Translations under genes and position numbers: made by a program
Notes under the pieces: generated by a model
Databases searched by the model: none
What the model saw: the letters and a program-made list of their open reading frames with translations, nothing else
What the model was told of the DNA's origin: nothing
Assembly: GCA_008632985.1 (NCBI GenBank)
Contig: QPGO01000117.1
Location: 1 to 64,000 of the forward strand
From: Psammoneis japonica
Taxonomy: Eukaryota
DNA length: 64,000 nt
Direction: 5' to 3'
Shown: positions 1 to 32,189 of the stretch, piece by piece
Numbering within the stretch: position 1 is the first letter of the stretch
Layout of the letters: each line of letters opens with the position of its first letter

Positions 1-1076
1 TGCAGCAGGCTGCTCCCATCAAGTTTCAAGGAGAAGAGGCAAGCCAAGGCCAGCTGGCCTGGTCTGGACCCTCCATTGACATCTTCCTGTTGCTGCCAAC
101 CACCAGCACAACCCACTGCATTGTGACAGCCCAAAAAAGAGCAGCCATCTCCTGCCATGCTGTGCAGGGAAGCTTGGGCTTGGCAGATCAACTGTGTGTG
201 TGCTGCCAGAAGATTGACTTTTTTGACTGCAGGGTCACCCAAAAGGGGTTTGGTGTTGTGCAGAAAGATAGATCCCACTGGGCCTGCTCCTGTGTGCACC
301 TGTGCTGGACTCAGCCAATGCTGAGCACCCTTGCAGCCCAGCAGCAATGAAGCCCTCCACCAAAATGTCTGCCAAAACCTCACTGTGCCACATCTGTGGT
401 CTGTGGCAAGTTGAGATGCTGGACAGGAATTGACCTGGGTGTTTCTCCACTGGCCACATCGACAAGCTGTGCCAGCAGCAAAGGGAGTGGTGCAGCAGTG
501 GACAAGGTTTGTGGCACAGTTGTGGCAGTGGCAACTGCAGCAACCACTGATCCTGAAGGCATGGCAACAGACACAGCCAGGTTGTGCCAGCTGGAAGAAG
601 AAGTGCTTGCTCCCAAGGATGGAGAGAGCTGACATCTGAGACTCTGTGGAAGGGGAAAACAGCAGCGCTGAGAAGTGCTCATTCTGGTCTGGCACAAATG
701 ACCACAGAAGAAGCAGTTGGGCTCACATGACTCACCTGTTGCATCTAGCCCAGGTGCCACAGTGTGTTCCTTGGCTGATCCCAGAGCAGGTGTGCAGCTT
801 TTCACTCACTCCACTTGCTGTGTCAGTTGTGCCCCCTCACTGGTTTGTTGTGCTTGGGTGCCCTGCACCCCATTGCATGGGTTTCACTCTTTGCTGCTGC
901 TGGCTGCTGCCCTCCCCACTTGCCTGCAGGGTGGTGCTGGCGTGACCCATCATTGTTGAGATTGTCATGTCCCTTGGCACTCTTGTCATCTCCTCTCAGT
1001 TTGCTGGCACCTGCGCCCTCTTCCCACGTGTTTTGAGCTCCTTCTTCCACCTGACAAATGCTGTCTCTCAAGCTCT

Positions 1077-1104
1077 TGTGTGTGTGTGTGTGTGTGTGTG
1101 TGTG
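1077..1104. repeat. (TG)14 microsatellite
   Basis: Perfect TG run read directly. Confidence 0.95.
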
Positions 1105-1257
1105 GCTCTTTCCTGTCTGAAGACACAAGGTGGGCTTGGACACCTGTGCTGCTCTCCTTGCCACATGTTCACACCAGCGCACACACAAAAACATGCCATT
1201 TGAGATGTGCTGTGAGCAGGTGTTGCCACGACAAATGCCACCTTGGGCCATTGTGCA

Positions 1258-1426
1258 TTACGGACTAGCGGTGTCGGGACAATCTAACGGACATCTAGGA
1301 CAGATGACAATCATGTGCTAGATGAGAAAGAAAGTGAGCAAAGGAGAGATCATCGGATCTCTCCATGCTGTCCATGCTAGTCTGTCCGACACAAGGGAGT
1401 GTGCTCCCCATCTCGGATGTCTGTCA
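1258..1426 (-). repeat. 3' LTR of the Copia-like element
   Basis: Matches 3762-3930 except at 7 TA/TG/CA dinucleotides. Confidence 0.92.
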
Positions 1427-2040
1427 CCTTCCCCTGATGAGCAATGCAATGCTCAACAAGAAAGAAAGAGACGATCCGAATAAAAAGAGAGGACCAGAAC
1501 AGCAAAGAACAAAAAAGAGCACCAAAAGAAATGGCCAAGACTTGGTCCGCAAACACGACAACAATCAACGACAACATCCCAACAAGCGACGAGCATGTCG
1601 GGAACAAAACATCCATCCCGCGCTCAACGCATCGGTCTTCGACAAAAAATGTCAAAGGTGGTTCCCAACAAATCTTTTGGATAAATTGAGTCGTGCACCA
1701 AAGAACAATTTTGTCAATCCAATGACAATCGACAGCAAAGAGACATTCTGGCGAGTCACCTGTCGCCAAAATCATCGGAAGAGATGGGGCCAAAAATGGA
1801 AATCCACCATGGGAGGATGCGGTGAAAATGAAGCAATGGCAATCCACCTGACAAGCCAATGTTTCTACCACCAAATGTGTCGCCCCTGAAAAACACATTG
1901 GACAAAACAAGCACATCATAAAGTCGCTCAACGTCGGAAGAACAGTGACGTGTCGTAGGTGAGCACCGCACGGCGTTCAAATCATGGTCGTCAAGTGCGG
2001 TTTCTTGGTTGAAGGTTGAATTCTCAACAGCCTGATGCGC

Positions 2041-2370
2041 TTCCTCTGCGCTGTAGGAATCCCTCCCATGATCAAAAAGCACAGGGTCATCATCAGGGAT
2101 GGTCGACAGGTCGGGAGTGCTAGAAAAAATGCCACTCGACACCACAACGGTCTTGACAGCGAAGGAGGAAAGAGGCGACACACTGGAAGAGTTGGTGTGA
2201 TGATCAATCGTGCACACTTCCTCTGCACGACATTGCTCCCTCCTTTGATCAGAAAATGAAGGATCATCATCAGCGATGGTGGACAGGTCCAGAGTGCCAT
2301 GAAAAGTGCAAATGGACACGACAACGGTCCTGACAACGGAGGAAAGAGACGTGACAGCAGAAGGCAGTAA
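2041..2370. repeat. Diverged internal tandem duplication, unit about 177 bp
   Basis: ttcctctgc...catcatcagNgatggt...gacagg...acaacggtc...ggaggaaagag occurs at about 2041 and about 2218. Confidence 0.75.
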
Positions 2371-2667
2371 GACTCCGTGGTCCTCTTTCATGACTGCCCT
2401 GCTTCTGTTGGTCTTGCTCGGACAATGGAAAGAATGGCGGCATCGTGTGTCCGAAACTGACGACGGCCGAACCAAAAATCCGAATGCGAATCAACTTGAC
2501 AACCAACAGAGTGCTGGCGGCATCCGCAAGTGTCAGATGACGGCGGGATGTAGGTGGCAAGCAGCTTGGGTGTAACCTTGGTGAGAGAGAGCAGTCCATC
2601 CTTGAGGTGAATGTGGCCCTTTTTGCATGGAACAACAGAATGGCCCGAAACAAAAAACTTTGGGGTC

Positions 2668-3558
2668 TCAAGCAGGCAGGCATGGACGTCGGCGGGAAGC
2701 ACTGCCCGATTTGGCATGAATTGCAAGGGATCCAGCACCAATGGCTGTAGATGGCTTACCCACCGGTTCCACAACAGACATGGCAGACTTGATGTTCAAA
2801 GAACTGTCATCCGCAGGGTCCATCCGAGAGTCCACAGCGAGTGCATCTTCAACACGAGACACAACAGCAGTGTTGTAGCTGCTGGCAGTAGAAGCGGGAT
2901 CTGGGCACAACTTGGACTCAGTGTGTGCATTAGAGCTCGAAATGCTCCTCAATCCATCAATCATGGCTTGCCCACACCCGTTTGGACCAGGCAAATGAGT
3001 TGCCAAGGCCTTGGCAAAGTCTTTGGGAGCAAGACCTGCAGCAGCAACCGGAGGGGATGCAGAACTTGAAGCAGTCGGTGGATCTGGGTGCGGATCATCG
3101 GAGATGTCATCCCAGCAATCACAACGCCGAAAACGAGGGCTGAAATGGAAACGTAGAGTCCCAACATGTGCATGCATGGTGTCGTCGTTCTCTGAGATCG
3201 CCTTGATCACAGTCTTCTGAAGAGCACTGAGGTTCAGGCGAACCGGGGAGCCTTGAGGGGTGGCTGCAAAGAGAGGAGCCTTTTCAATGATCGGTCCGAT
3301 TCGTGTGAGATCTTTAGTCAGGACAGCTTCAGGGATGACAAGATTGTGAACGATCTCATGTCGGAGGACAGTGACAGCATCGCTCTTGAGGCCTTGAGGG
3401 GCAAATCCATCCAAAAGATCTTCAGGAGCAGGGACCTCGTCCGAATGAAGGGTGTTCAGGAAAATGTGGGCATCGGGCAAGCGATTGTGTGGGCTGAATT
3501 CAACCCGCATCGTCTTGATCTTGGTCAAATCGACGGCGTTTTGATTTTTGTTCACCAT
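2668..3558 (-). pseudogene. Internal ORF of the LTR element (gag position, no recognisable domain)
   Basis: 296-aa ORF starting about 200 bp downstream of the PBS, in element orientation, nearly Tyr-free. Confidence 0.45.
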
Positions 3559-3761
3559 GGTTGCGCGGGAAAAAAAATCAAATTCCTGCGCAGAGCTCTG
3601 GCATGTGTTCTACGGTGGTCGTTTGATCACAAATCGAGAGGTGAAAAAACAGCTGTGACAATGATGACGATTTCAACGAAGAAAAGGTCGCCAAATCACA
3701 CAACAGGTGCTGCAGCAGAGGAGCACAGAGGAAGAGGAACAGCGCACTGCTGCTCATGACC

Positions 3762-3930
3762 TCACGGACTAGCGGCATCGGGACAATCTAACGGACATCT
3801 AGGACAGATGACAATTGTGCACTAGATGAGAAAGAAAGTGAGCAAAGGAGAGATCATCGGATCTCTCCATGCTGTCTGTGCCAGTCTGTCCGACACAAGG
3901 GAGTGCACTCCCCATCTCGGATGTCTGTCA
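3762..3930 (-). repeat. 5' LTR of the Copia-like element
   Basis: Direct repeat of 1258-1426, followed on the minus strand by the PBS-like motif. Confidence 0.92.
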
Positions 3931-4618
3931 GTGCATGTGCATCATCATTTCACATCTGAGGACATGCAGTGAACATGACCCCACATGCCCCCCTTGCATC
4001 TGCACGCAAGACCACACCCTCAAAATGTGCACACTGGGGTGCTGAGATGTGCGCTGAGTGGGTGCTGCTGCGCTGTGTCAGTGGACTCGAACACTCTTGC
4101 ACCAACCTGGCCTCAAACACTCTTGCACCCACACCATTTTGACCACAGGTGCCATTGCTTCTGTTGCAGTTGCTGCTCCAGTGAACACTCTGGAGAACAA
4201 TGGCGAGCTGTGAGCCACAGATGAGAGGGCGCTGTCTCTGCCACTCTTTTTCTTGCTGAAAAAATGCAAAAACACGATGTCACTCCCTCCCAGCTGCCCC
4301 CCAAAACACAGTGGGCACAATGGAGTGAGTCACCACACAATTTTAGAAAGCCTGTTGATTGCCGCATCTGCTCATTTCTGTCGTACATTGTCAATTCTTG
4401 TCACCATGGCGTGATTTGCTCAAAAAAAGCGCGAAAGTGTGGTGTCTGTTGGTTGCCAGCAGGTTGTGTGCGTCGTTTCGAATTTCACGAGGTCTGTCTC
4501 CTCTTGTCACAAAACCTCGCGCGCCGGAAATCTTGCCTGCTGTTTTTTTCTTGCGTCTCGCATCTCGCTCGGTGCCTTCGTTTGCATCTGTTGTTGCCCA
4601 TTTCTCAAAGAAAGCATC

Positions 4619-5386
4619 ATGTCCTCCGGTCTTGTCAAGTGTGACTGCATCGAGTGCCAGTCTGGGATGGCAATGCTGGATCCTGTGAATGGCATGCATG
4701 TGGACTTTTGCCAGAACTGTGGCCGTGCCTGTTGTTGCGGCTCCGGACCAACCCATGTGTCCTGTCCCTGCTGTCATCAATGCCAACAAGGAAAGTGTCT
4801 GGAAAAAGAAGATGCAGAAGAAGAAGAAGCAGAAGTCATTGAGCCTCCCAAGAAGAAACAGAACGTCACCAAAAAGGCGACCACTCCCAAGATTCCTCTG
4901 GCGGAACAGTCGGAGATTCGCATGGTGCGCGCCTCGTCGCAGCAGGGTGAGTTCTTGGCCGAGAATGTTCTGATCGACGACAATGGCAAGACCTTTTGGA
5001 AGTCAGAGCCTGTGAAACGAAAAGACCGCAAGGAACAGTGTGTGGAATTCCAACTGGCGCCCGACAAGAGTGTGCGCCGTTTGGGGTCGGTCTCCGTGGA
5101 CGAGACACGCCAGGTTGGACTGTCGGACTTTCGAATCGACTTTAGCGAGGATGGAACATTGTGGAAGCGTGGCCACTCTCTGTGGGGAACATCGTCGGCG
5201 GGGGACGGCGTGCGTTCCAATCATGATCTTGGAAACATTGTGGCTCGCTCGGTCAGGATTGTGTGCAAGAAACCAAGATCGTTCAACTCCGGAGTTGGCT
5301 TTGCGTTTGTGCAGTTCAATCGTGTGGCCAAAATGAGGGAACCAGGTGGCATCCTTTGTGATGAAGAAGAGAGTGGTGACTGTTGA
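4619..5386 (+). CDS. Protein with a C-terminal galactose-binding/discoidin (F5/8 type C)-like domain, probably TA-eroded
   Basis: ATG at 4619. Motif pattern RASSQ...AENVLIDD...TFWKS...EQCVEFQL...DFRIDFSEDGTLWK...ARSVRIV. No Tyr in 255 aa, with Cys/His at expected Tyr positions. Confidence 0.55.
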   Translation: MSSGLVKCDCIECQSGMAMLDPVNGMHVDFCQNCGRACCCGSGPTHVSCPCCHQCQQGKCLEKEDAEEEEAEVIEPPKKKQNVTKKATTPKIPLAEQSEIRMVRASSQQGEFLAENVLIDDNGKTFWKSEPVKRKDRKEQCVEFQLAPDKSVRRLGSVSVDETRQVGLSDFRIDFSEDGTLWKRGHSLWGTSSAGDGVRSNHDLGNIVARSVRIVCKKPRSFNSGVGFAFVQFNRVAKMREPGGILCDEEESGDC

Positions 5387-5770
5387 GCACTGCAGAACGT
5401 AACTTGTTGCCCAACTTAGTTGCCATCACGTGTGCATGACAGCCAGACCAGTGGCAAATGGGCCCAAAACCTAACGAGGATCTCTTAGACAGTGCACCAG
5501 GGCCCTCGGTCTGTCCTCCATGGCGACAGCTCCTGGCATGTCATGTGTTTCAGGCGCGTGAATGGATGGCTGAATGTGAACACGTGATGTTCGCCTGCCG
5601 AATGAGACAAGGACCGAAGCAACGTGAGTCACTCATTCACAGCGGCCTTTGCTGAAAGATGGATGATTCCAAGACAACACAGAATGCAGAAGTGGGGCGT
5701 CTGCTGAAATGGTTGCTGCAGAGTGCAAGTGCTGCTGTGCTGTCATTTAAAGCACCCACTTCAGTTTGAT

Positions 5771-7215
5771 TTAATTTGCTCTCCAGTGGAGATTCCAAAA
5801 CTGGGAGCAGCCGAACCCAATCACCACCACGGCCACAGCAACAGAAAGCTGCGTAACCAACCAATTCTTCTTTTCACAGGTGTCTTGGTCGAGATTTCCA
5901 TCCAGGCATCGAACAAAGTCGCGGCTCGAGTCATCGTGCTTTCGCATTTCGTCCACTTGGCTTCCCATGGGGGCGCACTTCATGATCATCCCAAGGATCC
6001 AACACTCAAACGCATTGGACGAGTTGACGCTCTTGCCTTGGGATCGGGCTTCCTTGACAAGCTTCTTCATGCCCTCGCGACGAGCTCCCCAGTCGTAGCA
6101 TGCAATGGCTTCTGCTGGACGCGCAGCCAGCTCGGCAAGTTTGGTGGCACAAACGCAGGCATCGGTTGTGGCACAATTCGTTCCTTGTCCGAGATGAGGA
6201 GACTGAGGATGAGCAGCGTCCCCAAGCAATGCGACCAGCTTTCCGGGACTCGAGCAGGGCAAGTCAACACGAGGAAGGTCAAAAATTGCAGCCTTGGTAA
6301 TCTGAGATGCGGGTGTCTCTTCCATCACTTTCATCATGACGGAGGACAATGGCGTCCCCTTGTCCTTGAGGGATTGCAGCAGTGCTGCCTTGGACTCATC
6401 CGTAAGAATTGCTCCTCCTCGGCAAGTCAAGTCTTCCGCAGTGCTGCCGGTTGGTCCATCGGCGGGTGAGCCAAGCACCCATGGAACCGTGCCATCTCCT
6501 GGTGAGATGAAGAATGAACCAGGTTGCTTGCCAGCACCCAGCATCCAAACAAACGAGTCACCCTTGAAGCTTTGCATGTCCTGGATGGCCTCCGTCGTGT
6601 CACATCTGCCCCAGCAGCACGTGACACCACAGTGTTCGAGAGGATCACCATCTTCTCCCTCGTCCTTGAACAGGCAATGTCGAATCTTGGAATGAACACT
6701 GTCGCAGCCGAGAAGGCATCGGCCCACAATCGTCGAACCGTCAGTCAAGTTGACCGCCACGTGTTGCTCGTCTAGATCTTCGGAAAAGGACTCGACCGCC
6801 ACACCACACTTCAACCAGTTCGCTTGGCATTCTTCTGACGCAAGGTCGAGAGCAGCGCGTTTTGCAACTGGGCTCGATGCGCCGATCCACAGCCCGACGA
6901 CAAGGCTTGAGGCATTTCAATGTTGCGGACCAACGTGCCTTCCATCGTTTCCATGTAAAAACCAACACAGTGTTTCAAGAAACCGTCCACAACCGACTTG
7001 GACAATCCGAGGCGGTTCTTCAAAATGTCAACCGTCGTGGGAGCAAGGTCAAAGCCAGCTCCGACATTGGAGCACAGCTTGCTGCGCATTGCCTTTTCCA
7101 ACACGACAAATGGAATGCCATGGTTCTGCAGAACCAACGCGGCAATCAATCCGCACGGCCCACCGCCAGCAATCAGAACGGGAGCAGACACAGGCTTGGG
7201 TGATGGCGACGACAT
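5771..7215 (-). pseudogene. FAD-dependent monooxygenase (aromatic hydroxylase/zeaxanthin epoxidase-like), frameshifted and TA-eroded
   Basis: Motifs VLIAGGGPCG (GxGxxG), LLGCDSVHSKIR (DG motif) and LLGDAAHPQSPHLGQG (GD motif), plus a C-terminal TM helix. Frameshift near 6842. Only two Tyr seen. Confidence 0.85.
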
Positions 7216-8091
7216 GGGCGAAGAGAAAATGCACCTTGCAGACAGTTGCTGGAAACTTTTTGTGAGAGCGGTGCCATCCGAAATTGTGAGGGGAGACACC
7301 GAAAGGGAAGACTCCATCCGCCTTGAAAGAATCGACGATCCGCCTTGAAGGGCTTCGGAACGGACAAGAACAGAGCTGTTGGCTGACGCATGTCATGATG
7401 ACAAGTGTCATGCTTCGGCAGCCTGCCGACTTTGTCATTTGGTCACAGGAAGAACCATCAACAATCAAAAGCGAAAAATGAATCCGCAGCCCCATGCTGG
7501 ATGCGCATCCGCCTTGAAGTCTTTTTGGAACAGAATAACCGAGAACCGTTCACGAATGACGTCAGTCTTGATGGGGGCTCACGGGCTCACCTACCGACAA
7601 CGCACCAACCATAGCTAACTACGACTTCCGCGCGCTGAAATAGCATGTCTCTCTTGCTTCTGTTGAGTCTAAAACCACTTTCGTGGATTACAGAACACTC
7701 TTATTCAATTCCATAGGAACATAGAAACCAGGAGAATGCACATTAGGTGCATCGTCCATCAGGGAGAAACAGCTTTCGATGTGATTGAGATATTGGTAAT
7801 ATCTCTTTTGGCGCATTTGTAATTCTAATTGATAGGACTATGTTTTAGAGGCTAACATTTTGTTGAGTGCAGTCATATCCCTGGTACTTGAAAACAGTAG
7901 AAGAGAATTGAAGCCGTTCCTGCTGATTAATGCGTACTACGCTCCCGGATAGAGGCTTGTGTGCCATCGAGAGAGCCAACTAGAAATTTTTGAGACAAAC
8001 CCCCCACAGCAGCAGTAGTAGTACAGCTGAAATGCCAGTTACATTATCAAGTTAATCTCTATAGCTCCTAATAGCTCTAGAGAGAGTACAA

Positions 8092-9555
8092 CTATGATTG
8101 TGCCTTTTGTCTAGGTGCCGGATCCCAATACCCCTTCCAATCTCCACCGCCAAGAAATTTGTACAGTCGCCGATTGTAAGGCGCATAAAAGTCTTCCAAC
8201 ATTTGTCGCGTTGTCGCATTCATAGCCATGGTGTAATTGCTAACCACCTTGTCTTTCTTGTCAGTCAGTTGGTGGTCCGGCAAATTCAAAAACTTTAGAA
8301 CCTTTTCATATTCCTTGTCCACATTCTTCTTCAAGTCTTCGGATCGAATCACTAAGATTTCCTTTTTAGGATCCCGTCCAACCTCCTTCATGGCTTGGAA
8401 CCAATGTCGCAATTGCATTTCATACATACCACGCCCAATCGGTCCCTCATGAGCCAGTCGCAAATACTCGGTCCACGCTTCATCTTCTTGGGGCGATCCG
8501 GCAAATTTGTTAAAGTTCACCTTGTTCCAATCATGCACGAGTCCGGCTTGCTTCATGAATTCAAAATCCTCTTCAATCCATCGCTCAAAGGACATTTTAA
8601 GATTGACACGCCGCACGGCATAGGCCCAATTGGAATACGCCCGATCGACGGGATTCCGCAACACCACTAGCAACTTGACCCATGGACAGACACAGAGAAT
8701 GCGTTGCGGAAGCATGGTGGAAAAGAACAAGTATCCCGGCGTGCCGTCAAAGGAAATGGACTTTTTGTTTTCTTCCAATGCCTTGTGATGGTAGTCAAGC
8801 GCATACATGTGTTGCCGTGCGGATTGGACCGCCGTTTTGCGGCTTGCCGTCACGTAATTGCCACGAAAGTTCTTGTTGAGAAAGAATTGTAACTCCTTGG
8901 TACGAGCGGGGATGACGGACGGGTGTTGTGTAATATAAGACGCGAGCGACGTTGTACCGCTTTTCTTGGCACCCGGCAATAAAAAGTAGGGAGCTCGCAA
9001 TTGCCAGGCATTGTCGCCTGTGGGATACCACTCGGCACCCTGCAATTCACAATACCGTTCCACAAAGGTGTCGTTGCCTGTTCTTGTAGAAGTAACGTTT
9101 GAACTATTCGTAACGTCAATAGCTGATGGCTGATCTTTTGTATCGGTTGTTGGCAAAGCATTTTTCGATTCCAATTCCGGCAGTTCCGAACGAGGCTTAT
9201 CGTCAATTCTGTGTTTCTTTTCTCGAAGACTCTCGAGTTCGTTGCTTTTCTCATCCTCTGGCGGTTCCTTTTCAGTCACGTAACTTTGCTGTTTTTCATT
9301 CATATTCTCTATTATTGTTTCTGTTTGTTTCGTCGGTTTCTTTTTTTCTATTGTCATTTCGTTGCTTTTGTTTTTCAACACCACTTTGGCTGGGTCACGG
9401 ACGAATTGAGAATGTCCCATCACAATCAACACCAAAAAGGCAAAGAAACATGTGATTTTCAAGCCACGATGGTGTGCCGCCATACTTGGTACATGATGAT
9501 CATTGCATGTCGTGTTGGACAAGAACAGCGGTTTCATCATCATCCTCGGGCACAA
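8092..9555 (-). CDS. Type II membrane sulfotransferase (heparan-sulfate 3-O-sulfotransferase-like)
   Basis: 5'PSB GAKKSGTTSL, 3'PB LRNPVDRAYS, N-terminal TM, C-terminal LEDFYAPYNRRL. Confidence 0.92.
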   Translation of the reverse strand: MCPRMMMKPLFLSNTTCNDHHVPSMAAHHRGLKITCFFAFLVLIVMGHSQFVRDPAKVVLKNKSNEMTIEKKKPTKQTETIIENMNEKQQSYVTEKEPPEDEKSNELESLREKKHRIDDKPRSELPELESKNALPTTDTKDQPSAIDVTNSSNVTSTRTGNDTFVERYCELQGAEWYPTGDNAWQLRAPYFLLPGAKKSGTTSLASYITQHPSVIPARTKELQFFLNKNFRGNYVTASRKTAVQSARQHMYALDYHHKALEENKKSISFDGTPGYLFFSTMLPQRILCVCPWVKLLVVLRNPVDRAYSNWAYAVRRVNLKMSFERWIEEDFEFMKQAGLVHDWNKVNFNKFAGSPQEDEAWTEYLRLAHEGPIGRGMYEMQLRHWFQAMKEVGRDPKKEILVIRSEDLKKNVDKEYEKVLKFLNLPDHQLTDKKDKVVSNYTMAMNATTRQMLEDFYAPYNRRLYKFLGGGDWKGYWDPAPRQKAQS

Positions 9556-9805
9556 ATCACAAACTTATTACGCCATGGCCGATGCTGCAGAAAAAAAAAA
9601 AGTACTTGGCGAAGCGGGCAAAATTCAAATGACATGCGGACGGATGACGGACAGGACATTGTGTATGACGTTTGTACTGGAAGACTGCCAGGAATTATAA
9701 GTATGTAGAATCCTTACCAAGCTTTACGTAACGAGTCATTTAACGGTATTTAACGTCTAACGTCCTTCGAAAAGTCACAAAGTCACGCCATATTTTTTTC
9801 TCACC

Positions 9806-11179
9806 ATGAGATTTCGCAACCGCATTCAACAAACACGAGGCCGACAACAGTTGCATCACAGTAGCACTAAGAAACACCATGTACTGATATCCGCTCGTCG
9901 CATTGTGCTTGTTGTTCTGACGAGTATTGTCGTGCTGTATCTAATTGTTGCGATTGCGTGGTATCGTCGTGATAATCAGCACAACAACAACAAGAATGCA
10001 TCAAGTCCTCATGGACCCAACCAGTTGTTGAGAAACACTGCAAATCAACAACAAATACGACGAGAAAACAAGATTCAAGCAAATGACGAGAAAATTAATT
10101 TATCGGCGGGAAGCATGCAGTACAAGGACTGGAGAGCGCTCGCCGTCAAACTCGCATCGTTGCCATCGCAAGAAGTTCTTGAAGCACTTGACGAACTCGA
10201 TCCGTTTGGAGTACGAACTTTTGAAAAGGATCTGTTACAGGCCGAAACTGATTTGAAGCGTGTTTTGACATTGGACGAAATTCAGCAATTGTTTCCGTGT
10301 CCACAAAATCGAATCAGTTTGCCAGATTTGCGACTACAACAGAAGGCACTCGATTTTCGCAATGCCAAGCCGGGTTCGTTTTTGTTTTTTCAACACTTGC
10401 GCAAAGCGGGTGGGACACACTTTTGTACACTTGCCCAAGCCAATTTACCAAAACGTGCACTGCCACCCTATTATTGCATGCCCGACATGGTTTGGAGTGG
10501 CAACAAGGCTGCGGGCTATTTGCATCATTGGAGCAATGCCGATATAGTTGCCAAGATGAAGCAACATCGTGTTGCTGGAAACGAATGGGATAATTTTGAT
10601 GTCAAGAACCATTTTGATTTGCCTGCCGTCTTTGCCACGTCGTTTCGTCGTCCTCTTGATCGGGCCTTGTCGCAATTTCGGTTTGAGTGTATCGAAGAGC
10701 GGGGTTGCAAAATCAAGGACGTGGGCAAGTGGTGGAAACGTCGAACCGACTTGAACAATGTCTACACGTGTACCTTTTCCGATGGGGACTGTCGGCAAAA
10801 GGTTTATACAGATGACTCGCTTTCCAAGCAACGAGGCGAAATGATGGGTACCGCACTGGATACCGTGGCAAAGTTCAATCTAGTCCTCGTTATGGAATGG
10901 TTGAGTTATGCAGCGCCGCAGGTGCAGAGCGTCTTGGGCTTTGCCGACACGTCCGTCTTGACAAAACGGGTACGGCCACACATTAATCAGGCACACCGAG
11001 AGGATGGTCAAGAACAAAATTTGGGTGCTGCGGGTATCGCAAAAGCAAGTTGGATCCCCAAGGATTATCTAACGGCAGAGCAATACGAAGACATGAGCAA
11101 TTCACTGGCACTGGACGAAATATTGACCGATGCAGCACGGCGACTGTTTCTAGAGAGACTGGTTTGTCCAGCCATATAA
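9806..11179 (+). CDS. Type II membrane sulfotransferase (Sulfotransfer_2-like)
   Basis: Motifs FFQHLRKAGGT and SFRRPLDRALSQF, N-terminal TM anchor. Confidence 0.88.
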   Translation: MRFRNRIQQTRGRQQLHHSSTKKHHVLISARRIVLVVLTSIVVLYLIVAIAWYRRDNQHNNNKNASSPHGPNQLLRNTANQQQIRRENKIQANDEKINLSAGSMQYKDWRALAVKLASLPSQEVLEALDELDPFGVRTFEKDLLQAETDLKRVLTLDEIQQLFPCPQNRISLPDLRLQQKALDFRNAKPGSFLFFQHLRKAGGTHFCTLAQANLPKRALPPYYCMPDMVWSGNKAAGYLHHWSNADIVAKMKQHRVAGNEWDNFDVKNHFDLPAVFATSFRRPLDRALSQFRFECIEERGCKIKDVGKWWKRRTDLNNVYTCTFSDGDCRQKVYTDDSLSKQRGEMMGTALDTVAKFNLVLVMEWLSYAAPQVQSVLGFADTSVLTKRVRPHINQAHREDGQEQNLGAAGIAKASWIPKDYLTAEQYEDMSNSLALDEILTDAARRLFLERLVCPAI

Positions 11180-11209
11180 AGAGAGTAACGAAAAACAAAG
11201 AATCGTGTA

Positions 11210-14200
11210 CTACTGAAACAAATGTAGATGCATGCGATAGAGATCTCCGCTTTTTACCGTGACCGGGATGACGCCAGACACCTCTTCATCCGCCGAGGCA
11301 GGAACACTGATTCTGCCGACGAGATTGGATCCCGCCTTGCTTGTAGTATGACGTGGAGCCGACTGGTGGTTGTACAACCACCGCGTGGCGGACGCAGTAG
11401 CTTGCTCGAGTCGTTTCTCGGCGGCTGTCGGCTTTGCCAAGGATTCTTGAAGCAACGCTCTGGAATTTGTCTTGTCGGAACGAGCTTGTTTCAAATCCAC
11501 AATCGACACGGACGCCTTGGCGAGACGAGAATAGCATCGTGGCGGCTGACAATTGCTGGAGACAGTGAAAACCGTCATCTTCGGGATCTTGCGTTTTCTC
11601 GTCTTCGCTTGTCGTTACACCAGGAAGAGGTGGAAGAGACATTAGCGTAGAAACAAAGGCTTGCGACTTGTATGCCGCAGCCTCGCGTCGTGCCGACTGC
11701 AGAGCGGGACGATACAAGGCTGTTTCCATTGCGGCAACACTAGCCGTGGACGCTGCGTCGACCGGAGGCTGCAAATCAAAACGTCCACGTCTCGAGTCGG
11801 TCGAGTACTCTGTAATGGCACTCACGCTGCGTTTGCCCATGTACGAGTTGCGTCTGCCACCTTTTTGTGGAGACTTTGAGTCTTTGAAAGACCGAATCTC
11901 TTGTTCATACTCGTCAACTTGACGTTGGAGCACGTCCATGGCCTCGGTGAGCTGTTGCAACAGACAAAGAATCGGCAATGAGAACTAAACGAAGAGGACG
12001 TTAATGAGAAAACGACTTGATCCAAGATGATCAGACTTACCACTCGATTCTCTTCCTTGACACTATTTAACTCCTCTGTAGACACCTGTTCTACGGATTT
12101 CTTCACTGGAGAAGAACCCTTTCGTGCCAAGAGCTTTTCCAGTTCCGACAGCCTTGCGTTCTGAATTGCAATTTCCTTCGACCGCGACGCCAAGCTCTGC
12201 GGGGCAAGACACAACATAGAGAATAAGCGTTGAATACAAGGATCTGGAGTATAGACAAAAGCAAAGCAAAAGGACTATACGCACCTTCTCCAAGCTGGAA
12301 ACCTTGGCATTTGCCAGATTGAGCTTGGGCTCATTGGCGACTGCATCGGACAGTTGCTGTTCAATGGTTCTAGTTCGCACCAAGAAATTGACATCCTCTT
12401 CGTCTCCATTGAGGGATCGTACTGCCCGAGACAGACTAGCAATACCACTCCACGGATCCTCTGCTTCAGGGGACAAGGGATGAAAGGTACTATTGTCCTC
12501 ATTATTGAGGCCGGCAGAACGAAGCGCGGCTGAAGTCTGCACCAACGCCTTCAGCACTTCATCTGCCGCGGACTCACATGTCGCCGCATTCGAGACGGTC
12601 GCACTGTCTTCCGACGACAACATAGCCTCCACACTTGCAAGCAGCTTTGACGAAGCTTCTTTCCACGGAGCTACAGGTTCCGCAACGCTTGCAACAACCT
12701 TTTCGTCGCTCACGTCTAACCTAGCCAAACGGACGCACGCCTTGGAGGCTTCAGAGCACACTTGATCAAGCTTTGACATTAACGAGCCGAGCACAGCCTT
12801 GGCTTCATTCGAAGCGCTCTGTCCCGACTCTTCTGCTGCAACCGCCGATGCAACAGCTGCTCCAGCAGCTAGGCAGGAGAACTTAGACACAGATGCATCT
12901 CTAAATAGCCCCCATCCCGGAGGCTTCCAGGCTACCGGAAGCAAAAGATTTCCGTCCGAATCAATCGCGGTGTTCAAATGTTCCATGGCATTCCGAATGC
13001 TCTGCTCAAACGATCCGAGATTGGTTTGGTGGGGTGAAAGCACGCCCTCTTCCTTGAGCGTTCTTAGCATATCACTCAGGGCAACGTCCACGTCTGAAAT
13101 GGAATGACCAACCAAGGAACCCAATTCCGCCGACGATTGCGGAGTCAAGAGATCTGGCCATTGCCCAGCCGACAAGAGCCTCAACAAATCCGCGGCAATA
13201 TCTGTCGTTGCGAGCGCAAACTTGGATTGGTGAATCATGTTTCCTACCGCCTGTGAAGCATCATCCGACAAGGTCAAAACCGTATTAGGATCAACCTCCA
13301 TGTCCTCGATAGAAAGAGTTTCGCTGGTGCCCATTCGTATCTTTTGCGTAAAGATTGTTGCGATTCCGTCTAAGGATCGCGATGCCTTTTCAACAAGCTT
13401 GGAAAGTAGCAGCTCGCCCTTGACGGACGCCAGTTCTGACGAGACAACACCCTGTGGTAAAAAACTTTCGAGTCGGTCCGACAAGTGACGAAGCACATGG
13501 GCTTCAATACGATCAATCACAGCCTCGGCCTCTCGCTTGCGAATGTTTGCACCGTCGGCAACAAGTTGAGAAGCCCGGGCAAGCGCCTTTTGGGTAGATT
13601 GCAACAAGTCTGATTTTTCTCCTTTTTCGCCCTTTTGTAATTCAAGGAGTGCACTCTTTTCTTGCTTGAGAGTCTCCACCGATGTTCGATAATTGCTGAC
13701 GGTCCGCTGAAAGTCTTCCTCACGGCGTCGTTGCCTACGAGAATAAGAAGTAGTCACAAACAGATTAGACAAAGAGGCTGACAAAACTAAGCCGCAACGA
13801 AATGCACGCGATATCATCCACACTCACAGTCGAATAGCTTCTTCTAAATTCCTCACAATCGTATCCCGTTCTTCCAAGTCTCGCTCGAGCGCCTTGGTTT
13901 CCTCTGCCTGCACTTCTTCCATTTCAGCCGTAATCTCGGAAGCCTGTTCCAACTCACGAATTGTCGTTTGCAGCGCGACATTGTCATCCTCTAAGGCCAT
14001 GACGCGATCGGACAAGTCCTCCACCATGCCTTCTAACGCACTGCCCTGTTCCACCATGTCTTTCAAGTCACTAACTTCTTCTTGTAGTTTAGCACGTTCC
14101 AGTTGCAGCGATTCGACTTGCGCCACAAGCTCGTTACCCGTGGCGGCATCTTTTTCGGCGGCACGCAAGTCACGAGACAAATCCATTTTTTCCATGGCCG

Positions 14201-15650
14201 ATTGTTCTCGTAGTCTGATTAATGCTTCTCGGAGACGGGCATTCTGAATCGACAAGGCTTGCACGGCATCATCGTCATCCGCGTTACCCGTCGACACTGC
14301 TTCAGTAGCAGACGCTGCCGCCGCTTTGCTGTTTTCAAATTCGAGCCGCGCTTCTTCCGCTTCCATTTGTGCCGTTTCTGCATCAATCTTGAGTTCCTCC
14401 ACTAAATCCTGAAGCGCTTCCTTTTCTTGTTGCAGCTCTTCTTTATCCAAGGCCAATTCCTCAATGGTGGTGTCCATTTCGAGTTTCTGTTTTTCCATTT
14501 CTTCCACGATGCGATGGGCCTTTTGCAATTCGGCTTGGAGTTTAGCCTGCTGTTTGTAGTGCTCGTGACTCGACGCTCCTCGAGACGATTCTTGCTGGCG
14601 CATGGCCTGCAATTCCAATTCCAACGCCGAGGCGGATGCTTTGGCTTCGGTAAATTCCGCTGCATCAGCTTTTCGGGCTTGTCGTTCCTGTTCCAAGTCG
14701 CTCTGTAGGGTTTTGGTTTCCTTTTCCAAGGACTGTATTTGATCCTGCAAATCGTTTCGTTCGGATTCAACTCGACTCAATTCACCCTTCGCCGCATTCA
14801 GCGCTTCTCGGGCATCTTCAAGAGTCATCACGGATGAGGATTCTTGTGCTTGCTGTTGTTTCTGAGTTTCCTCTTGTTCTTTGATAGCATCTAGAGCTTG
14901 TTTTGCCGAGTCTGCTTGTGTTTTTGCTTCGTTTGCTTCTTCTTGTGCCGTGGCGAGACTCTGCTTCAAGGAATCGTTCTCTTGAGCTTTGGACTGCAAT
15001 TCTGAAGTAAGACTCTCGACTTGAGTCTCGAGGGATACAATTTTAGATTGAAGAGCTTCGATTTCTTGTTTGGAAGGCCGCAAGGGAGATTTGGAAGTTG
15101 CCGATCGTGTTGGCGTGGTGCTACTAACAGTGGGTCTGGTTGGAGTCGTTCTCGTTGCTGCCGTCCGAGCCGTCATTCTGGAAGCCGCCGCTTCTTCTCG
15201 CCGTCTACGAATTTCGTCTAGTCTCGATCGAGCCGATGATGAGGATGACGGTGACGTCCTTGATGCTGTGGGAGACGTTGCTGCAGCTGTAGGAGATGAC
15301 ACAGCTTTGGGGGCGGGTGAAGACGTTGTCGTTCCACTCTTTGCCAGTTCTCGCTTCAACCGCAGCTCCTCCAACCTCGACAGTGTTCTTTTCTTGATAT
15401 GTGACTTTCGCACAAAAACTCCTCCGTTGGGACCACAAGTAAAGTACTGCTGACCTTGGACTGTGCCGTCGTTCTTGCCCATGCCTACTGATGCACCAGT
15501 GAGCTTGACGCCAACCCAATCCTGACCGTCAGCAAACGAAACCTTACCGAGATAGGCAACGATACCTTCGAGCGGTGCGTGTCCCTCCCCGCGCTCGACA
15601 TGGACCGGGTCATTGACCTTGAGGTCGGTGGTGCGCATAGGAGACGCCAT
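11210..15650 (-). CDS. DCTN1: Dynactin subunit 1 (p150Glued); exons approx. 15650-13828, 13734-12285, 12196-12041, 11951-11210
   Basis: N-terminal CAP-Gly domain (WVGVKL...GKNDGTVQG..YF), Ser/Pro/basic linker, long coiled coil with QNARLREALIRLRE. GT-AG introns. Apparent 1-bp frameshift near 11530. Confidence 0.9.
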
Positions 15651-15919
15651 GGTGAAACGAAAAAAGATTGTGCTGTTGCCAGAAGGTTGTCGCGCGCGGT
15701 TAGTCGGCGGTCATCCTAACAGGGGATCGAGCTCTAAAATACGAGCTCTTTTCGTTTGTTTGGCTGAGTACACGGACATCAACCAGCTTTTTGGATTTGC
15801 AGAGCAATCAACTCCACTCCACCCGTCAGACATGTACAAGGTCTGTTAATTTTATTACGTCATTGTGGCAGCCAAGGTCGGTTGCAGGCCTGGGAGGAGA
15901 GAGAGAAAAAGCACAGGTC

Positions 15920-18181: not shown

Positions 18182-18547
18182 TGCAGTGTGCGACTGTTGT
18201 GTGCACATGTGTGATCATGCGTTATTTGCACGTCAATCGTGCCACAGTCGTGGATGCGTGCGAAGGACAGAACGATCACACAGAGTTGATCGGAAGTCGA
18301 AAATCGCAAATACGATCGATGGACGATGCTGACATCTTATGTGTCAAAAGCAATCGCATTCGGACCATCTGTTGTCACGATTACATTCTCCGAAAGGCCT
18401 TTTGTCTGTAGAAGCAGCACAGAAGCTTTAGGCCATTGAGAACTCGTTCGGAGAAACCAAAATCAAAGAGCAAAATTTAATCTCATAATTTCCACTTTTT
18501 GCACACTGTTCTGCTTTCGTTTGCACTCGTTCTTCGAGCACAGTGCA
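18182..18547 (+). repeat. 5' LTR of the Gypsy element
   Basis: Ungapped match to 22454-22819. Confidence 0.95.
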
Positions 18548-21500
18548 TTGTGCACACACACCACAGAAGGTAAAAAGCACGGAAAATGAAAATTTTAACT
18601 GATGTGCCTTTGTAAATTCTTCTACAAACAGGAGCGAATCGCATCAGTTCTGCTGGAATCGATTTCCGAGCGGAAGAAGCTCAATCCGAGCAGCACCTCA
18701 AGATGGAACGCTGTTTTTCGTCTGCCAAACGAGAGGATTCGCTCTAATGCGGTCTGTTCCAAGCACCCAAGGATCAAGGGCTCTCAAGCACACCGCATTG
18801 TCAAAAAATCTACACCAATTCATGGTTGCAGAGAATGCAAGTTCCGAGTCGATCAGATCCGAGAAACACGTCTGCCATGCAAGGAGAGACTGTTGGAGAG
18901 TTTTTTGAGACCGAATCGATGATCCTCGAGTCCAAGGAGCAAGAGGGAATCGTTGGAAAGTGCCTCAAGCGTCTCACAACTCATGTCCTCTGAGGAAATG
19001 CACTTCAGAATCAGGGAAATTATTTTCGAGACGACCTGAAGAAACCAGAGCCGCTCAACAGCAAAGAAGCCTCTGACAGACCCAAGAGGTCAATGATGAG
19101 AGTCTGCATGACCCTCAGATCGATTCTAAGTCGAATCTAGCGGGAAAACGAGCGCTGAGTTGTCAGCCATCACTCGCACCGCAAGGATGGCAGCATCAGC
19201 CTGCTGTCCAAAATGTTGAACTGCTGGATCACACCCTTGACAAGCTGATTGAGGTTTGAGTCGTCCAGAGGTCGGCAAGGACGTCTGTGACAAAAAAATT
19301 TGTCAACTCAGGCTCTGATGGCGCAGTTGATTCCACAATCAAAAAGGTTCCAATTTTGGTTCCAAAAATGGTCTCCTGTGTGGTGCCAGAACAATCCAAA
19401 GTGAGTGCAAGGTCCAATCTTTCAACAAAGAACACCTGCATCACGGATTCAGGCCATTCTGCAAAAGAACTGGCGAAAGAATGCCGTGGACATGACAAAT
19501 GTGATCCAAAACGGCACAGTTCAAATGGCAATCGCACGCGGTCGCATCGCGATGACGACAATGCCTCTCGCAAAGAAGAGTTGAATGCTGTGGTTGTCCA
19601 AGCAGTTCAAAAAAATGCTCAAAGCGAGTTCTTCACACAAAGATAAAAAGCGCAAGAGCAAAAATTAAGACTCTAAAACGCTTGGCGAACAAAACCATCA
19701 ATTTAGAAAAAATTGACCCAATCGAGTCCGATCAAAAATTTGTGCCGCTCGAGGAGTGTAACGCGTCACAGGACGTCTGGAAACCCAGAAAAAGCATCAC
19801 AGTGTGTCACACGAGTCCTGTTCTCGCTGTCCACATGACTGCTGCTCTGAGAAAAGCAAAAAACAAGCTTCCACGTGTTCTCTCGACAAAGAACATCGTC
19901 AGCCCATGATTTTACGCAAAAATCGTGCGAAAGTTGAGAACCAAAACATCCGCCACCAAAAAACTTGGGAAACCAAGGGTGAGCTCTTTACGACTGACAG
20001 CAAACACCGAATTCAGTTCTCACTGCGCGAATTTAAGACTTGCTGACATTCAAACAGCACATGTCAACAACACCAAATGCCCTTCAAGGTCGAATGATGT
20101 GATCATGGGACGCGACTTAATGTCCAGTCTTGCAATCACACTAGACTGCGCAATTGAAGAAATCAAATGGGAATGAAGCAATTACCCTATGAAGAATGTT
20201 GATGCACTCTTCGACACAAAAATGTTCCAGCTGAATGCCGATCACATTGAAAAATGTCACACAGTGAATGGAGTTAACAACGAGACCGATGGTTCTCGAC
20301 TCACATTGTCACGCCGTCGATTCTAATCAAGTGACAGCTACAGCAATGCATCTAAACCAAAAGAAGATAAACCACTCAGTCTCCTTCTTATGAGGCTTAA
20401 AATCCTTTTGAAAAAGTTCATTGGACAAATGAATGGGAAGAACCAGTGGATCTCACCATGAAAAATCTGACGCGATCACGCGACGTGTGAGAACCTTCTC
20501 CTATCATAGTCTTTGGAGGCGTCCATTTGAAAGGAATTTAACCAATTATGAAAGATTGAAGATTTAAAAATGAAGTTGCGATTCAAACATGGAACACCAC
20601 GATGTAAAATCAAGAAAGCACACGTCGTGCTCACATCAGAATAATGCCGTGGGGGAAAACGAGTGCCATAGACTTCCAATAAGAATCTATAGAGCCCCAG
20701 ATATTTTCATACAACACATGAGCGAACTCATGACAGGTTTAAAGTTGTCAGAACGACCATGAATGAACGTTTGTGCCTGACAGAAAGTAACTTCAAAATG
20801 TCACCTGTACAAGAAAAACTTGAAATGGCATTCATACGACTAGAACAGTCGCTTTGAAGGTTAACAAACAAAAGTCCTTCACTACTTAACTTGAAAAATA
20901 TTATCAAGACTTCCACACGTAACGGCACACATCTGATTACAAAGAAAATGGAGGCGATTCCGGCAATCGCAACATTGAGCAAAACGTAAAGAATATTACG
21001 ACAGCTTGTCGATGTACGTTACTGCTATAAAGACATGTAGTCTCAATGATCTCCTGTACATTTCTAGCCAAATCCACCTCAATAAAGGTCAAACGGCAAA
21101 AGGACAAGTACAGAACGAAAAGTCTCCGAAAATATGGAGCGCATCATATCAAAAACTATGTTATTATCAAACATGGTATTGTAATATTCAAGTCACAACG
21201 GAAAAAGAACTTCTGTCCATAGTGGAAACACTTAATAATTCCCGGAATATACTGTTTGGCCAACAGATTATTATATATACGGTTCATAACACACAACGGA
21301 CATAGTCATGCGTTGACGACTTAAAATAAAAAATTTCAGTCCCGAATTAAAATACATCAAGGACAAGGCGAACGTCGTCGCAAGAGCGATCAGCCGACTT
21401 ACTATAAAAAAATAGAACCTATGGAAAACCTCAGCACAGAAGAGTTAGCTGAAAAGGTCCTACCAAAATCCTACGACAATGTCTTTCCGTTAAATTGCAA

Positions 21501-22453
21501 AGTTCTCGATACTGAACAAAACGGGATAAAGACATTTCCTCCAAATTGTCGGACGCGACATATCATACGAACACTTTTCGTCGAGGCGAGCGAGATCAAA
21601 AATGCTCATGTCATAAGGAAAAAATCGCCTTATTTAGGGACGGTTAAAGAAAAAATCAGTGACAGATTGGTATACATTATACGTACCTACTTCACATTGG
21701 CAAAAGACAATCTCACAGCACCCGTACGATTGTAATGTACGATGTACGAGGCAAGACATAAATAACGTCACACGAGATGTGCCAAAGATTCAGAAACAAA
21801 ACACAAAAATGGACATTATTTATCCGAATAGTGCACAAAAGCAGTGCCTTCGGAATGACGAAATGTCACCGGCATGTCAAAAAGAAACGTCCAAATAACG
21901 ATCAAAATCCAAAGGAAAGATGGTTGAAGTAATAAAGAAATCCATAAAGGAATCCATAACCATCCCAGGATTATCAAGACGAAATGGTTAGAAAATATCC
22001 TTGACCATCGTTAATTACTTACGATGCGTGGAAGTGCAGCAGAGCAATGTGGCACATATAAAGTTAGCCAGCCAGAACTACACGAACTCCACAAGTAAAG
22101 TGAACGCCATAATAATTAAAAGAGCGTACATTAAGTGCTGGGCACAATGCCAGGTACAATCGACATCATGAAAAACACTGCAGGACAATTGGTCCTTGTG
22201 TTCATGTCAACAAAGAACGTCAACGAGAACACTCGACACAATGCTGTGCACACATGCATGTAAAGTGAGAAACAAACGATGTCACTCTCACAAGACATTC
22301 GGAAATTGGAACGGCCCCACATGGCCCACACAAAACGACAACAGTCATCACCAATGGCACAATGCAGTGAACGTGGAGACATTGTTGACACTGTCAATGT
22401 CCGTCGAATGGTCCACTTAACAAATGACTCTAATGTGCAATTGGGGAGGCGAG

Positions 22454-22819
22454 TGCAGCACGCGACTGTTGTGCACATGCATGTGATTGCACATCATTTG
22501 TGTGTCAATCGCGCCACAGTCGTGGATGCGTGCGAAGGACAGAACGATCACACAGAGTTGATCGGAAGTCGAAAATCGCAAGTGCGATCGATGGACGATG
22601 CTGACATCTCATGTGTCAAAAGCAATCGTGTTCGGACTGTCTGTTGTCACGATTGTATTCTCCGAAAGGCCTTTTGTCTGCAGAAGCAGCACAGAAGCTT
22701 TGGGCCATTGAGAACTCGTTCGGAGAAACCAAAATCAAAGAGCAAAATTTAATCTCATAATTTCCACTTTTCGTGCACTGCTCTACTTTCGTTTGCACTC
22801 GTTCTTCGAGCACAGTGCA
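22454..22819 (+). repeat. 3' LTR of the Gypsy element
   Basis: Ungapped match to 18182-18547, preceded by the PPT. Confidence 0.95.
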
Positions 22820-30500: not shown

Positions 30501-30614
30501 AGTCAACAAGCATGTTTGTTTGTTTTGTTTTGCATGCCAGAAGGTGGGTCAACTCTCACTGGCCCTCAGACAGACATGCAGAGTGAGAGCGCCTTGTTGA
30601 TCTGTGCATTGCCC

Positions 30615-31480
30615 TTGTGAGACAATGTCAAATGTGCTTGCCTGCTGAAAAAAGCATGAGAGGCTTGTGAAGTGCACAAGAGCCATGTGACCTGATCAGC
30701 TGTGCAAGCAAATGTGGCACTGGATGACTGTTTTCTGCCAGCTGTGTCAGCCAATGGCAGCAGAGCAGTTGCCAGAGTTCTTGTTGAAAGAAGAGCTCTC
30801 CAGTGGGCACAGGAGTTGCAGGGGCAGGTGCTGCATCTCACAGCCTTCCTTCTTGGCAGTGAGCAGGACTTTTTTGGCAGGCCAAGAAGGGCAAGCAAAA
30901 GCTCACTGTCACCTCACCTTGCTGAGTCAAGATGGTGCTGAGAAAATTGCCAATTTCTTCTTTGCAGCAAAGACTTTGACTTCACCATCAAGAATCCTCA
31001 CATTGCCAGCATGGCCAACAGCTTCAACTTGTTTGTTGCTTGTGAGACAATGTCAATGTGCTTGCCTGCTGAAAAGCATGAGAGGCTTGTGAAGCACACA
31101 AGAGCCATGTTGTGACCTGATCAGCTGTGCAAGCAAATGGCATTGGATGGCTGTTCTTTGCTGGTTGCATCAGCGCGCCATTGGCAGCAGAGCAGTTGTC
31201 AGAGTTCTTGTTGAAAGAAGAGCTGCTTGCATTCTCTCCAGTGGGCACAGGATTTGCAGGGGCAGGTGCTGCATCTCACAGCCTTCCTTCTTGGCAGTGC
31301 ACAGGACCATTTTGGCAGACCAAGAAGGGCGAGCAAAAGCTTGCTTTCACCTGGCCTTGCTGCACCCTGATGGTGCTGAGAAAATTGCCAATTTCTCCTT
31401 TGCAGCAAAGACTTTGACTTCACCACCATCAAGAATCCTCACATTGCCAGCATGGCCAACAGCTTCAACTTGTTTGCTGC
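30615..31480. repeat. Tandem duplication of about 430 bp; a third partial copy lies at about 36360-36680
   Basis: gagacaatgtca...tgacctgatcagctgtgcaa...catcaagaatcctcacattgccagcatggccaacagcttcaacttg occurs twice. Confidence 0.85.
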
Positions 31481-31740
31481 TGGTGCTTTTTGAGCTTTGT
31501 TTCTGCACCCACAGGTGTTCAACCAACCTTCACCACTTGTTTGTCAGGTTGTCATCCTGTCTGCAGCTGTGGCGCAGTGCAAGGCAACTGCAGTCAGAGC
31601 CTCTTTGCAGCACAAGTTCTTGTGCACAGAGCTGTGATGGATGTGGAGCATCAGCCAGAGGTGTGTCACACAACACAGGACATCTTTGGCTGATGAAACC
31701 AAGAGAAAGCATCTCAAACTTTGCAGTGGAGAGGATGTTT

Positions 31741-32189
31741 TGCAACGCACAGCTGCCAATGAGAGTCAACGTATCACGGCGACGTGTTGCAGCCTTTAAA
31801 TGTCACAAAGGGCGTGACAAAAATGACCTTCTGTCTGCATGCATGCTGCACCGTGAATTCACAGCGGAGTGGTTCATCTCGCAACCATCAGGCAGGAGGC
31901 CAGGGGTTCGAAACCCTGAGTGGGAGTTGTCTGCAGCAACGTTGATCACGGTCGAACGCGCAAATCTCTGTGCAGTTCTGTGTGTTCCTTCGCACGCACC
32001 CACACTGTTCCGCCAAAACCGTGCAGTGTCAGTGCACGTCAGTAAAGAGCCGCATGGACGCGTGACACATGGGGAGGAGTGCAGTGTGCAGCTGCCAATG
32101 AGAGTCAATGCATCACGGCGACGTGTCACAGCCTTTAAATGTCACAAAGGGCGTGACAAAAACAACCTTTTGTCTGCATGCATGCTGCA
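31741..32189 (+). mobile_element. TRIM (449 bp) with 110-bp LTRs
   Basis: LTRs at 31741-31850 and 32080-32189 with TGCA...TGCA ends. TSD GTTT. PPT GGGGAGGAG (32071-32079). Confidence 0.9.
31853..31930 (+). promoter_or_regulatory. tRNA-derived segment with Pol III A and B boxes inside the TRIM
   Basis: A box (C/T)AGCGGAGTGG at 31862-31872 with D-stem GCGG/TCGC. B box GGTTCGAAACC at 31905-31915 with T-stem CAGGG/CCCTG. The anticodon arm is degraded. Confidence 0.7.

Follow-up and report, generated by a model that had tools for sequence, protein, structure and literature searches.

TpA-restricted hypermutation of a copia-type LTR element and of two neighbouring host genes on the insertion allele in the diatom Psammoneis japonica

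The stretch of Psammoneis japonica DNA analysed here, referred to as the window, comprises the first 64,000 nucleotides of contig QPGO01000117.1 (C117). The named matches to one protein encoded in it come from diatoms, at 33-45% identity. Near its left end, the window carries a non-autonomous Ty1/copia element of 2,673 bp on the minus strand (1258..3930), delimited by two LTRs and by a GTGCA target-site duplication on both sides (1253..1257 and 3931..3935). The 3′ LTR (1258..1426) and the 5′ LTR (3762..3930), both on the minus strand and 169 bp long, enclose an internal region (1427..3761, minus strand) that contains 18 TA and 110 CG in 2,335 bp. A polypurine tract adjoins the 3′ LTR (1427..1436, minus strand), recognised from its sequence and present at the same end in family copies. 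At the other end lies the primer-binding site (PBS; 3752..3761, minus strand), which pairs with the anticodon arm of the host tRNA-Met(CAT) except at a mutated TA. A 313-codon open frame (2668..3609, minus strand) is probably gag, judging by its position, and a Pfam scan of the element's frames, including this one, matched no family. The internal region also holds a direct repeat of 127 bp (2040-2166 and 2217-2343, 76% identical), whose copy number differs among the short family members. At the LTR ends (1258-1260 and 3762-3764), the element strand does not read TG..CA, and the 3′ end of the LTR includes one mutable TpA column.

The LTR search covered the 91.4-Mb assembly (597 contigs), with 40 of 133 candidates scored, and family relatives of 2.5-3.7 kb and of ~7 kb were retrieved. 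Since the window copy matches the ~7-kb relatives over ~970 bp at its 5′ end and ~350 bp at its 3′ end, it was classified as a non-autonomous derivative. The 7-kb relative L049 possesses gag_pre-integrs, SH3_retrovirus and RVT_2 domains in the copia order, the RVT_2 match (E 9e-6) being under the cut-off. No integrase core was detected in L049, and the integrase/RVT_2 region is absent from the window copy. The passages on the CoDi Ty1/copia elements of diatoms in PMC2806351 describe LTRs, a 5-bp target-site duplication and hemizygous insertion as found here, the same domain order as in our 7-kb relatives, and some families that lack TG..CA ends as the window element does; the window copy differs from those elements in being a 2.7-kb non-autonomous derivative.

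The insertion site lies in an older island (1..1257, with 2 TA and 7 CG, and continuing to ~4430) that is poor in TA and CG in both alleles. Two host genes follow on the right. Gene A (4619..5386, plus strand) encodes a protein of 255 aa with F5/8 type C and XRCC1_N matches, and gene B (5771..7215, minus strand) encodes a FAD_binding_3 monooxygenase that is 482 aa long on the allele without the element. Upstream of gene A, a 93-bp stretch (4333-4425) has four matches of 76-80% elsewhere in the genome. Across the window, genes have an observed/expected ratio of TA of ~0.5, and repeat blocks one of 0.0-0.2.

The two LTRs align without gaps at an offset of 2504 and differ at 12 bases, all of them transitions. 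These fall into seven dinucleotides, with TA/CA at 1259 and 1378 and TG/CA at 1272, 1312, 1316, 1373 and 1402, while seven CpGs (1261, 1269, 1275, 1288, 1354, 1387 and 1414) are identical in both copies. The alignment thus confirmed the counts of discordant dinucleotides and shared CpGs in the original prediction, which had been silent on four TpAs that are also shared (1266, 1285, 1296 and 1319). When 12 random transitions were placed on the LTR in 200,000 trials, at most three TG/CA double differences arose, as compared with the five seen. Although 7% of the bases differ between the two LTRs, none of the 129 positions outside the TpA and CpG columns does. Dating by LTR divergence therefore fails in this genome, as the differences of the window pair all lie in TpA or CpG columns. 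The PBS had been said to show the same change, and its minus strand indeed reads GGTCATGAGC.

To establish the original state of the discordant columns, we tallied them over 74 distinct family LTR copies placed by BLAST mapping, and CG at all five TG/CA columns was not what we saw. Three of the five are TpA columns: TA was found in 1 of 70 copies at 1316 (CG in 2; a MAFFT alignment gave TA in 3/44, and the BLAST value is used here), in 7 of 72 at 1373 (CG in 0) and in 4 of 73 at 1402 (CG in 1). Column 1272 (n = 65) reads CA in 38 copies, TG in 25, CG in 2 and TA in none, not even in the three LTRs that are least eroded. It was probably a TpA originally, as its profile resembles that of the G-TA columns and not that of the eight CpG columns, which have CG in 49-89% of the family copies. 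Column 1312, with CG in 50 of 71 copies, is a CpG site. The assertion that every CpG had been spared therefore did not survive, because the window pair has lost this one CpG twice, in opposite directions in the two LTRs. The original state is kept at 6/12 TpA and 7/8 CpG columns in the 3′ LTR and at 4/12 and 7/8 in the 5′ LTR, which amounts to 10/24 and 14/16 for the pair, and its CpG loss does not depart significantly from the family rate (P = 0.21). In addition, numerous CA and TG columns do not vary among the family copies.

Rates were obtained from 22 LTR pairs whose target-site duplications matched at 4 or 5 bases, with one repeated site skipped. The paired LTRs differed at 118 of 236 TpA positions, at 54 of 170 CpG positions and at 27 of 2795 other positions (1%). 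The TpA state was retained at 29% and the CpG state at 76% of the sites, corresponding to 1.25 and 0.28 hits per site, i.e., a rate difference of ~4.5-fold. The original prediction that TpA is lost faster is thus upheld, with the TG/CA pairs here arising mainly from TpA, and so is its view that CpG decay is not their main source, but CpGs are not untouched and its title overstated their preservation. A 1.3-kb internal stretch compared between 16 copies and one partly spared copy had lost 705 of 781 TpA and 345 of 825 CpG, figures that are rough because the reference copy is not a direct ancestor (4-14% other differences). Among the family PBSs (n = 35), 22 carry CA, 11 carry TG and 2 carry TA, and three further strings are other variants. 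In its TA form, the PBS matches the anticodon arm of the host tRNA-Met(CAT) over 10 nt; the tRNA was found at one of the six loci scanned out of nine pattern matches. Given that the PBS must pair with this tRNA, TA is the ancestral state.

What the original prediction had missed is that the mutation reaches ~3.5 kb beyond the element, into the two host genes on the insertion allele. Window positions 3940-7400 have one full-length second copy, on contig C94, which is colinear with window positions 3-62699 at 95-100% identity, lacks the element and has one GTGCA at the site. From this colinearity over 62 kb, we infer that C94 is the empty allele and not a segmental duplicate. The empty-site joint is present in contigs of the public run X1, which also show the two alleles next to each other at 6069-6341 (11 differences and 0); this rules out an assembly error, but X1 may be the assembly's own sample and not an independent population.

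Comparison with C94 revealed an allele-specific tract (4431..7440) of host DNA, single-copy apart from its allele, from which TpA has been erased. At its 89 C94 TpAs the window reads TG 39 times, CA 37 times, TA 12 times and AA once, while 171 of the 188 C94 CpGs are kept, 12 have become TG or CA and 5 are otherwise different. Thus 76/88 TpA and 12/183 CpG were turned into TG/CA (P = 5e-41), or 1.99 versus 0.068 hits per site. In the reverse direction, TA in the window facing TG/CA in C94 occurs nowhere in 4431-7430 and once at 7536. The right edge of the tract is sharp, between 7455 and 7592. In the genic DNA past it (7931-15750), 238 TpAs are kept and two are lost each way. No small repeat was found at this edge, as 7220-7720 matches only the C94 allele. 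The loss of CpG is also raised within the tract, 12/183 against 10/1702 in genic controls (~11-fold, P = 1e-7), which indicates that the two processes share territory, and they may have a common trigger.

Compared with the empty allele, gene A has 11 missense changes and has lost 7 of its 7 tyrosines, and gene B has 34 missense codons and has lost 11 of 13 tyrosines, i.e., 18 of 20 for both genes together. In gene B, a 4-nt deletion near 6823 also shifts the frame, leading to a stop at residue 135. At 21 TpA-type missense sites of gene B compared with 51 homologues, the C94 residue is the commoner one at 18, the window residue at 2, with one tie. A single insertion is thus tied to the ruin of two adjacent gene copies.

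The spectrum in the tract is narrow. Counted per strand-site, A>G changes occurred at 76/180 TA, 5/403 AA, 3/443 CA and 2/441 GA sites. The non-TA A sites together show 10/1287, and one of these ten, at 7140, is more plausibly a change at a CpG in C94; a single transversion was found at TA. In two genic controls, 2/482 and 7/1496 TA strand-sites were lost. The next base matters as well: relative rates were TAC 1, TAT 0.78, TAG 0.44 and TAA 0.23 in the family (781 site-copy observations) and TAC 1, TAT 1.28, TAG 0.49 and TAA 0.35 in the tract alone. This preference accounts for the surviving TpAs of the window LTR pair being CTAG and CTAA.

The two LTRs of a pair differ, TG and CA both arise in each copy, and genes of the host are mutated too, so the change took place after insertion, in chromosomal DNA. 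TG and CA outcomes are both present within single element copies. TpA loss is nearly equal in the tract and the element body (0.86 versus 0.84), whereas CpG loss differs four-fold (0.066 versus 0.24). One insertion is represented on two contigs, whose 6.5-kb block differs at 68 CpG-type, 10 TpA-type and 8 TG/CA sites; because this divergence is mainly at CpG, most of the TpA loss preceded the parting of the two. At 28559-32621 of the window, TpA had already been lost and the differences between the alleles are mostly at CpG, 24 in one direction and 13 in the other, so that CpG decay is ongoing on both homologues. Strand coordination was not found in the element copies, neither for TpA (249/502 versus 260 expected; P = 0.9, 0.68 and 0.69 at three distances) nor for CpG (P = 0.08-0.24). 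In the host tract, like outcomes cluster, TG and CA forming 28 runs over the 76 sites (P = 0.007, or 0.019 if tested within contexts), the left part being TG-rich (30/41) and the right part CA-rich (26/35; z = +2.5 and -2.4 after context). This split was chosen post hoc and the coding part of gene A shows no excess (10 versus 9.1), which makes it a weak lead only.

The erased zone overruns the window element by ~3.5 kb, while some LTRs that border normal DNA are spared. One 2.5-kb copy (L050 391-2886, on G000:C18) keeps its TpAs over 1.5 kb and has lost them over ~1 kb, with a sharp edge between the two parts, and both of its flanks are TA-poor. Since the erased zone overruns repeat ends, stops inside repeats or spares them altogether, targeting by chromatin domain is favoured over targeting by homology. 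Spreading is not the rule, as several other insertions have normal TA less than 0.5 kb from the LTR. The right end of our tract lies 240-380 bp upstream of the gene B start codon, and given this position the tract may have been laid along a transcription unit running into the transposon. That this insertion caused the tract is suggested by one allele pair: when empty-site alleles were sought for two other insertions, their flanks matched other repeat families. No second copy of the DNA to the left of the island was found, C117 starts at window base 1, and another allele-specific cause may lie further to the left.

In a 4.6-kb insertion at 18182-22819 of the window, absent from C94 and with no notable Pfam match in six frames, TA counts per 250 bp are low towards the left end (0-7 up to 20500) and the right end (1-3 near 22250-22750) and normal in between (13-21 at 20500-22250), as if erasure had entered from erased flanks. 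The segment 26343-28558 is also absent from C94 and is nearly without TA and CG; it is either an old insertion or a C94 deletion. Elsewhere in the genome, a member of another repeat family (L096 1-1683; 1043 candidates, 40 scored, 95-96% identical) is TA-poor and CG-rich.

Taken together, we consider it probable that the locus records a post-insertion, domain-targeted A:T>G:C hypermutation at TpA that is separate from CpG decay. A host mutator would work on chromosomal DNA once a transposon has inserted, turning TpA into TpG or CpA through a single A:T>G:C transition at each site, on one strand or the other, with A before a pyrimidine preferred. Its target would be a silenced chromosomal domain and not the repeat sequence itself, hence the overrun by kilobases or the halt inside an element. 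The TpA process would act early and run near to saturation, and a slower second process, CpG decay, presumably by methyl-C deamination, would follow in the same domains. The spectrum, its direction, the timing after insertion, the context rule and the spread into single-copy genes on the allele with the element are demonstrated by the data, whereas the targeting by chromatin domain and the causal role of this insertion are deduced. The absence of strand coordination in the element copies speaks against the preferred reading in so far as a processive single-strand enzyme is imagined.

We also considered a homology trigger like that of RIP, by which paired repeats would be recognised, for instance around sex, and mutated at TpA with leakage into the flanks. 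Many repeat families are affected here, fungal RIP is described in PMC2973834 as leaking at least 930 bp into single-copy DNA, and diatoms have the RID-related DNMT4 according to the part of PMC9998398 on these enzymes, with many C5-methyltransferase loci in this genome. Nevertheless, such a trigger is unlikely: over 3 kb the single-copy tract has lost TpA as completely as the repeat has, after which the erasure ends abruptly without fading, parts of repeats are spared (1.5 kb of a 2.5-kb copy, and LTRs beside normal DNA), the base change is opposite to that of RIP, and strand coordination is absent. Slightly less probable still is error-prone patch repair, in which mismatches from methyl-C deamination would lead to long-patch resynthesis by a Pol eta-type polymerase that mutates A at WA. 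The clustering of TG/CA outcomes in the tract, the raised CpG loss there and the second rank of the AA context (5/403) would suit this explanation, and an excerpt of PMC7884765 describes how, following C deamination, Pol eta acts at WA hotspots within the excised patches. Against it, TA exceeds AA 34-fold before correction for saturation, transversions are almost absent, TpA loss is equal where CpG loss is four-fold lower and came earlier, and the clustering is absent in element copies. Pol eta is far less selective than the spectrum seen here.

Two other explanations were given very little weight. Changes made during retrotransposition, either by RNA editing or by reverse-transcriptase error, would be in line with the presence of two A_deamin loci and with the preference of ADAR-type editing for a 5′ U noted in the consulted text of bioRxiv 10.64898/2026.01.13.699255, but the paired LTRs differ and both strands are mutated; for the host tract this origin is refuted, as host genes that never transposed are mutated as heavily, and we regard it as highly improbable overall. 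Methyl-CpG decay combined with a general avoidance of TpA, or an artefact of assembly, has a negligible probability. It is true that column 1312 is a CpG, that CpG decays across the family and that the TA observed/expected ratio is near 0.5 even in genes, but wherever the tRNA, the empty allele or the homologues give the direction of change, the starting state is TA, which refutes CpG decay on its own, and an artefact is ruled out by the presence of both alleles in X1.

The hypermutation that we prefer has a close counterpart in the chlorarachniophyte Bigelowiella natans, in which integrated NCLDV and virophage DNA undergoes TpA-restricted A:T>G:C hypermutation, at a rate per generation raised ~1000-fold in a subset of clonal lines, according to the consulted text of Mettrop et al. 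(bioRxiv 10.64898/2026.01.13.699255). The change described there is the same TpA>TpG/CpA on both strands, chromosomal and regional, and an adenine deaminase is proposed in both cases; the diatom spectrum conforms to this type, with 76/180 TA strand-sites against 10/1287 other A sites and 39 TG against 37 CA. As in that text, the bulk genome is spared here and TpA-poor sequences are associated with transposons, being enriched in transposon domains in Bigelowiella, but the diatom region overruns the foreign DNA. Our host is a stramenopile, the targets are LTR retrotransposons mutated close to saturation instead of integrated viral DNA, and the rate is read from scars, whereas it was measured in Bigelowiella. 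What the diatom locus adds is the spread into single-copy genes on one allele, the preference for a 3′ pyrimidine and the accompanying CpG decay; the words diatom, stramenopile, flanking, CpG and LTR are absent from the text of the preprint that was available to us. Literature searches for a report from diatoms found none and returned only this preprint, with subscription journals thinly covered. The allele pair thus offers a before-and-after record of a mutation process that has so far been measured in one unrelated alga, in one preprint.

Fungal RIP, as far as it is treated in PMC2973834, likewise introduces transitions at specific dinucleotides, by which inserted repeats are ruined and which spread into neighbouring single-copy genes. 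In contrast to it, the dominant change here is TA>TG/CA, which removes TpA, while RIP is C:G>T:A, mostly at CpA, and creates TpA. RIP is triggered by sequence duplication, acts before meiosis and needs RID; here, the mutated DNA comprises repeats and also 3 kb of single-copy DNA, some parts of repeats are spared, and the erased edges do not follow repeat ends. Diatom transposons are CpG-methylated (passages in PMC2806351 and PMC9998398), for which DNMT5 is responsible (PMC9998398); this methylation plausibly accounts for the slower CG>TG/CA decay, and it cannot alter TpA.

The empty allele shows the direction of the change, a selectivity of ~30-fold over CpG decay in host DNA and a context rule that can guide the search for the enzyme. 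Adenine deamination by a TadA/ADAT-type enzyme is our guess at the chemistry, with about even chances within the preferred explanation, because the spectrum consists purely of A>G changes and TAC is preferred, as it is by engineered TadA. The TAC motif of engineered TadA is reported in PMC9126838, in a passage that concerns RNA off-targets. A thymine lesion on the opposite strand fits equally, as TpA is palindromic and a lesion of A is indistinguishable from one of T. If a natural, regionally targeted DNA adenine mutator exists, it would represent a novel form of genome defence and be relevant to base editing. A tentative extension, which we hold to be possible but somewhat doubtful, is that diatoms have an adenine-targeting genome defence, in which an enzyme recruited to freshly silenced chromatin would rewrite most TpAs of double-stranded chromosomal DNA over sharply bounded kilobase tracts, shortly after the arrival of a transposon, with neighbouring host alleles destroyed as collateral. 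If true, stramenopiles and rhizarians would possess, in common or by convergence, a natural DNA adenine editor with regional guidance.

The deaminase inventory of the genome comprises MafB19/dCMP-type matches at five places and A_deamin matches at two loci, and C5-methyltransferase matches number 27, one locus adjoining a chromodomain frame. None of these deaminase and methyltransferase matches stands out as a candidate; the deaminases resemble ordinary tRNA or salvage enzymes, and a scan of deaminase frames detected no chromatin-binding domain. The two A_deamin loci (L115 and L116/L117) are of the ADAT1/ADAR type, and unicellular eukaryotes usually carry one such locus. At L103 (319-1791, minus strand), a single frame joins a zinc deaminase of the MafB19/dCMP type to DIOX_N and 2OG-FeII_Oxy domains, a fusion that possibly serves nucleobase salvage. 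Finally, C5 DNA methyltransferase genes at L110-L112 (G000:C301 and C297), some of them with stops, themselves lie in DNA from which TA has been erased and in which CG is retained.
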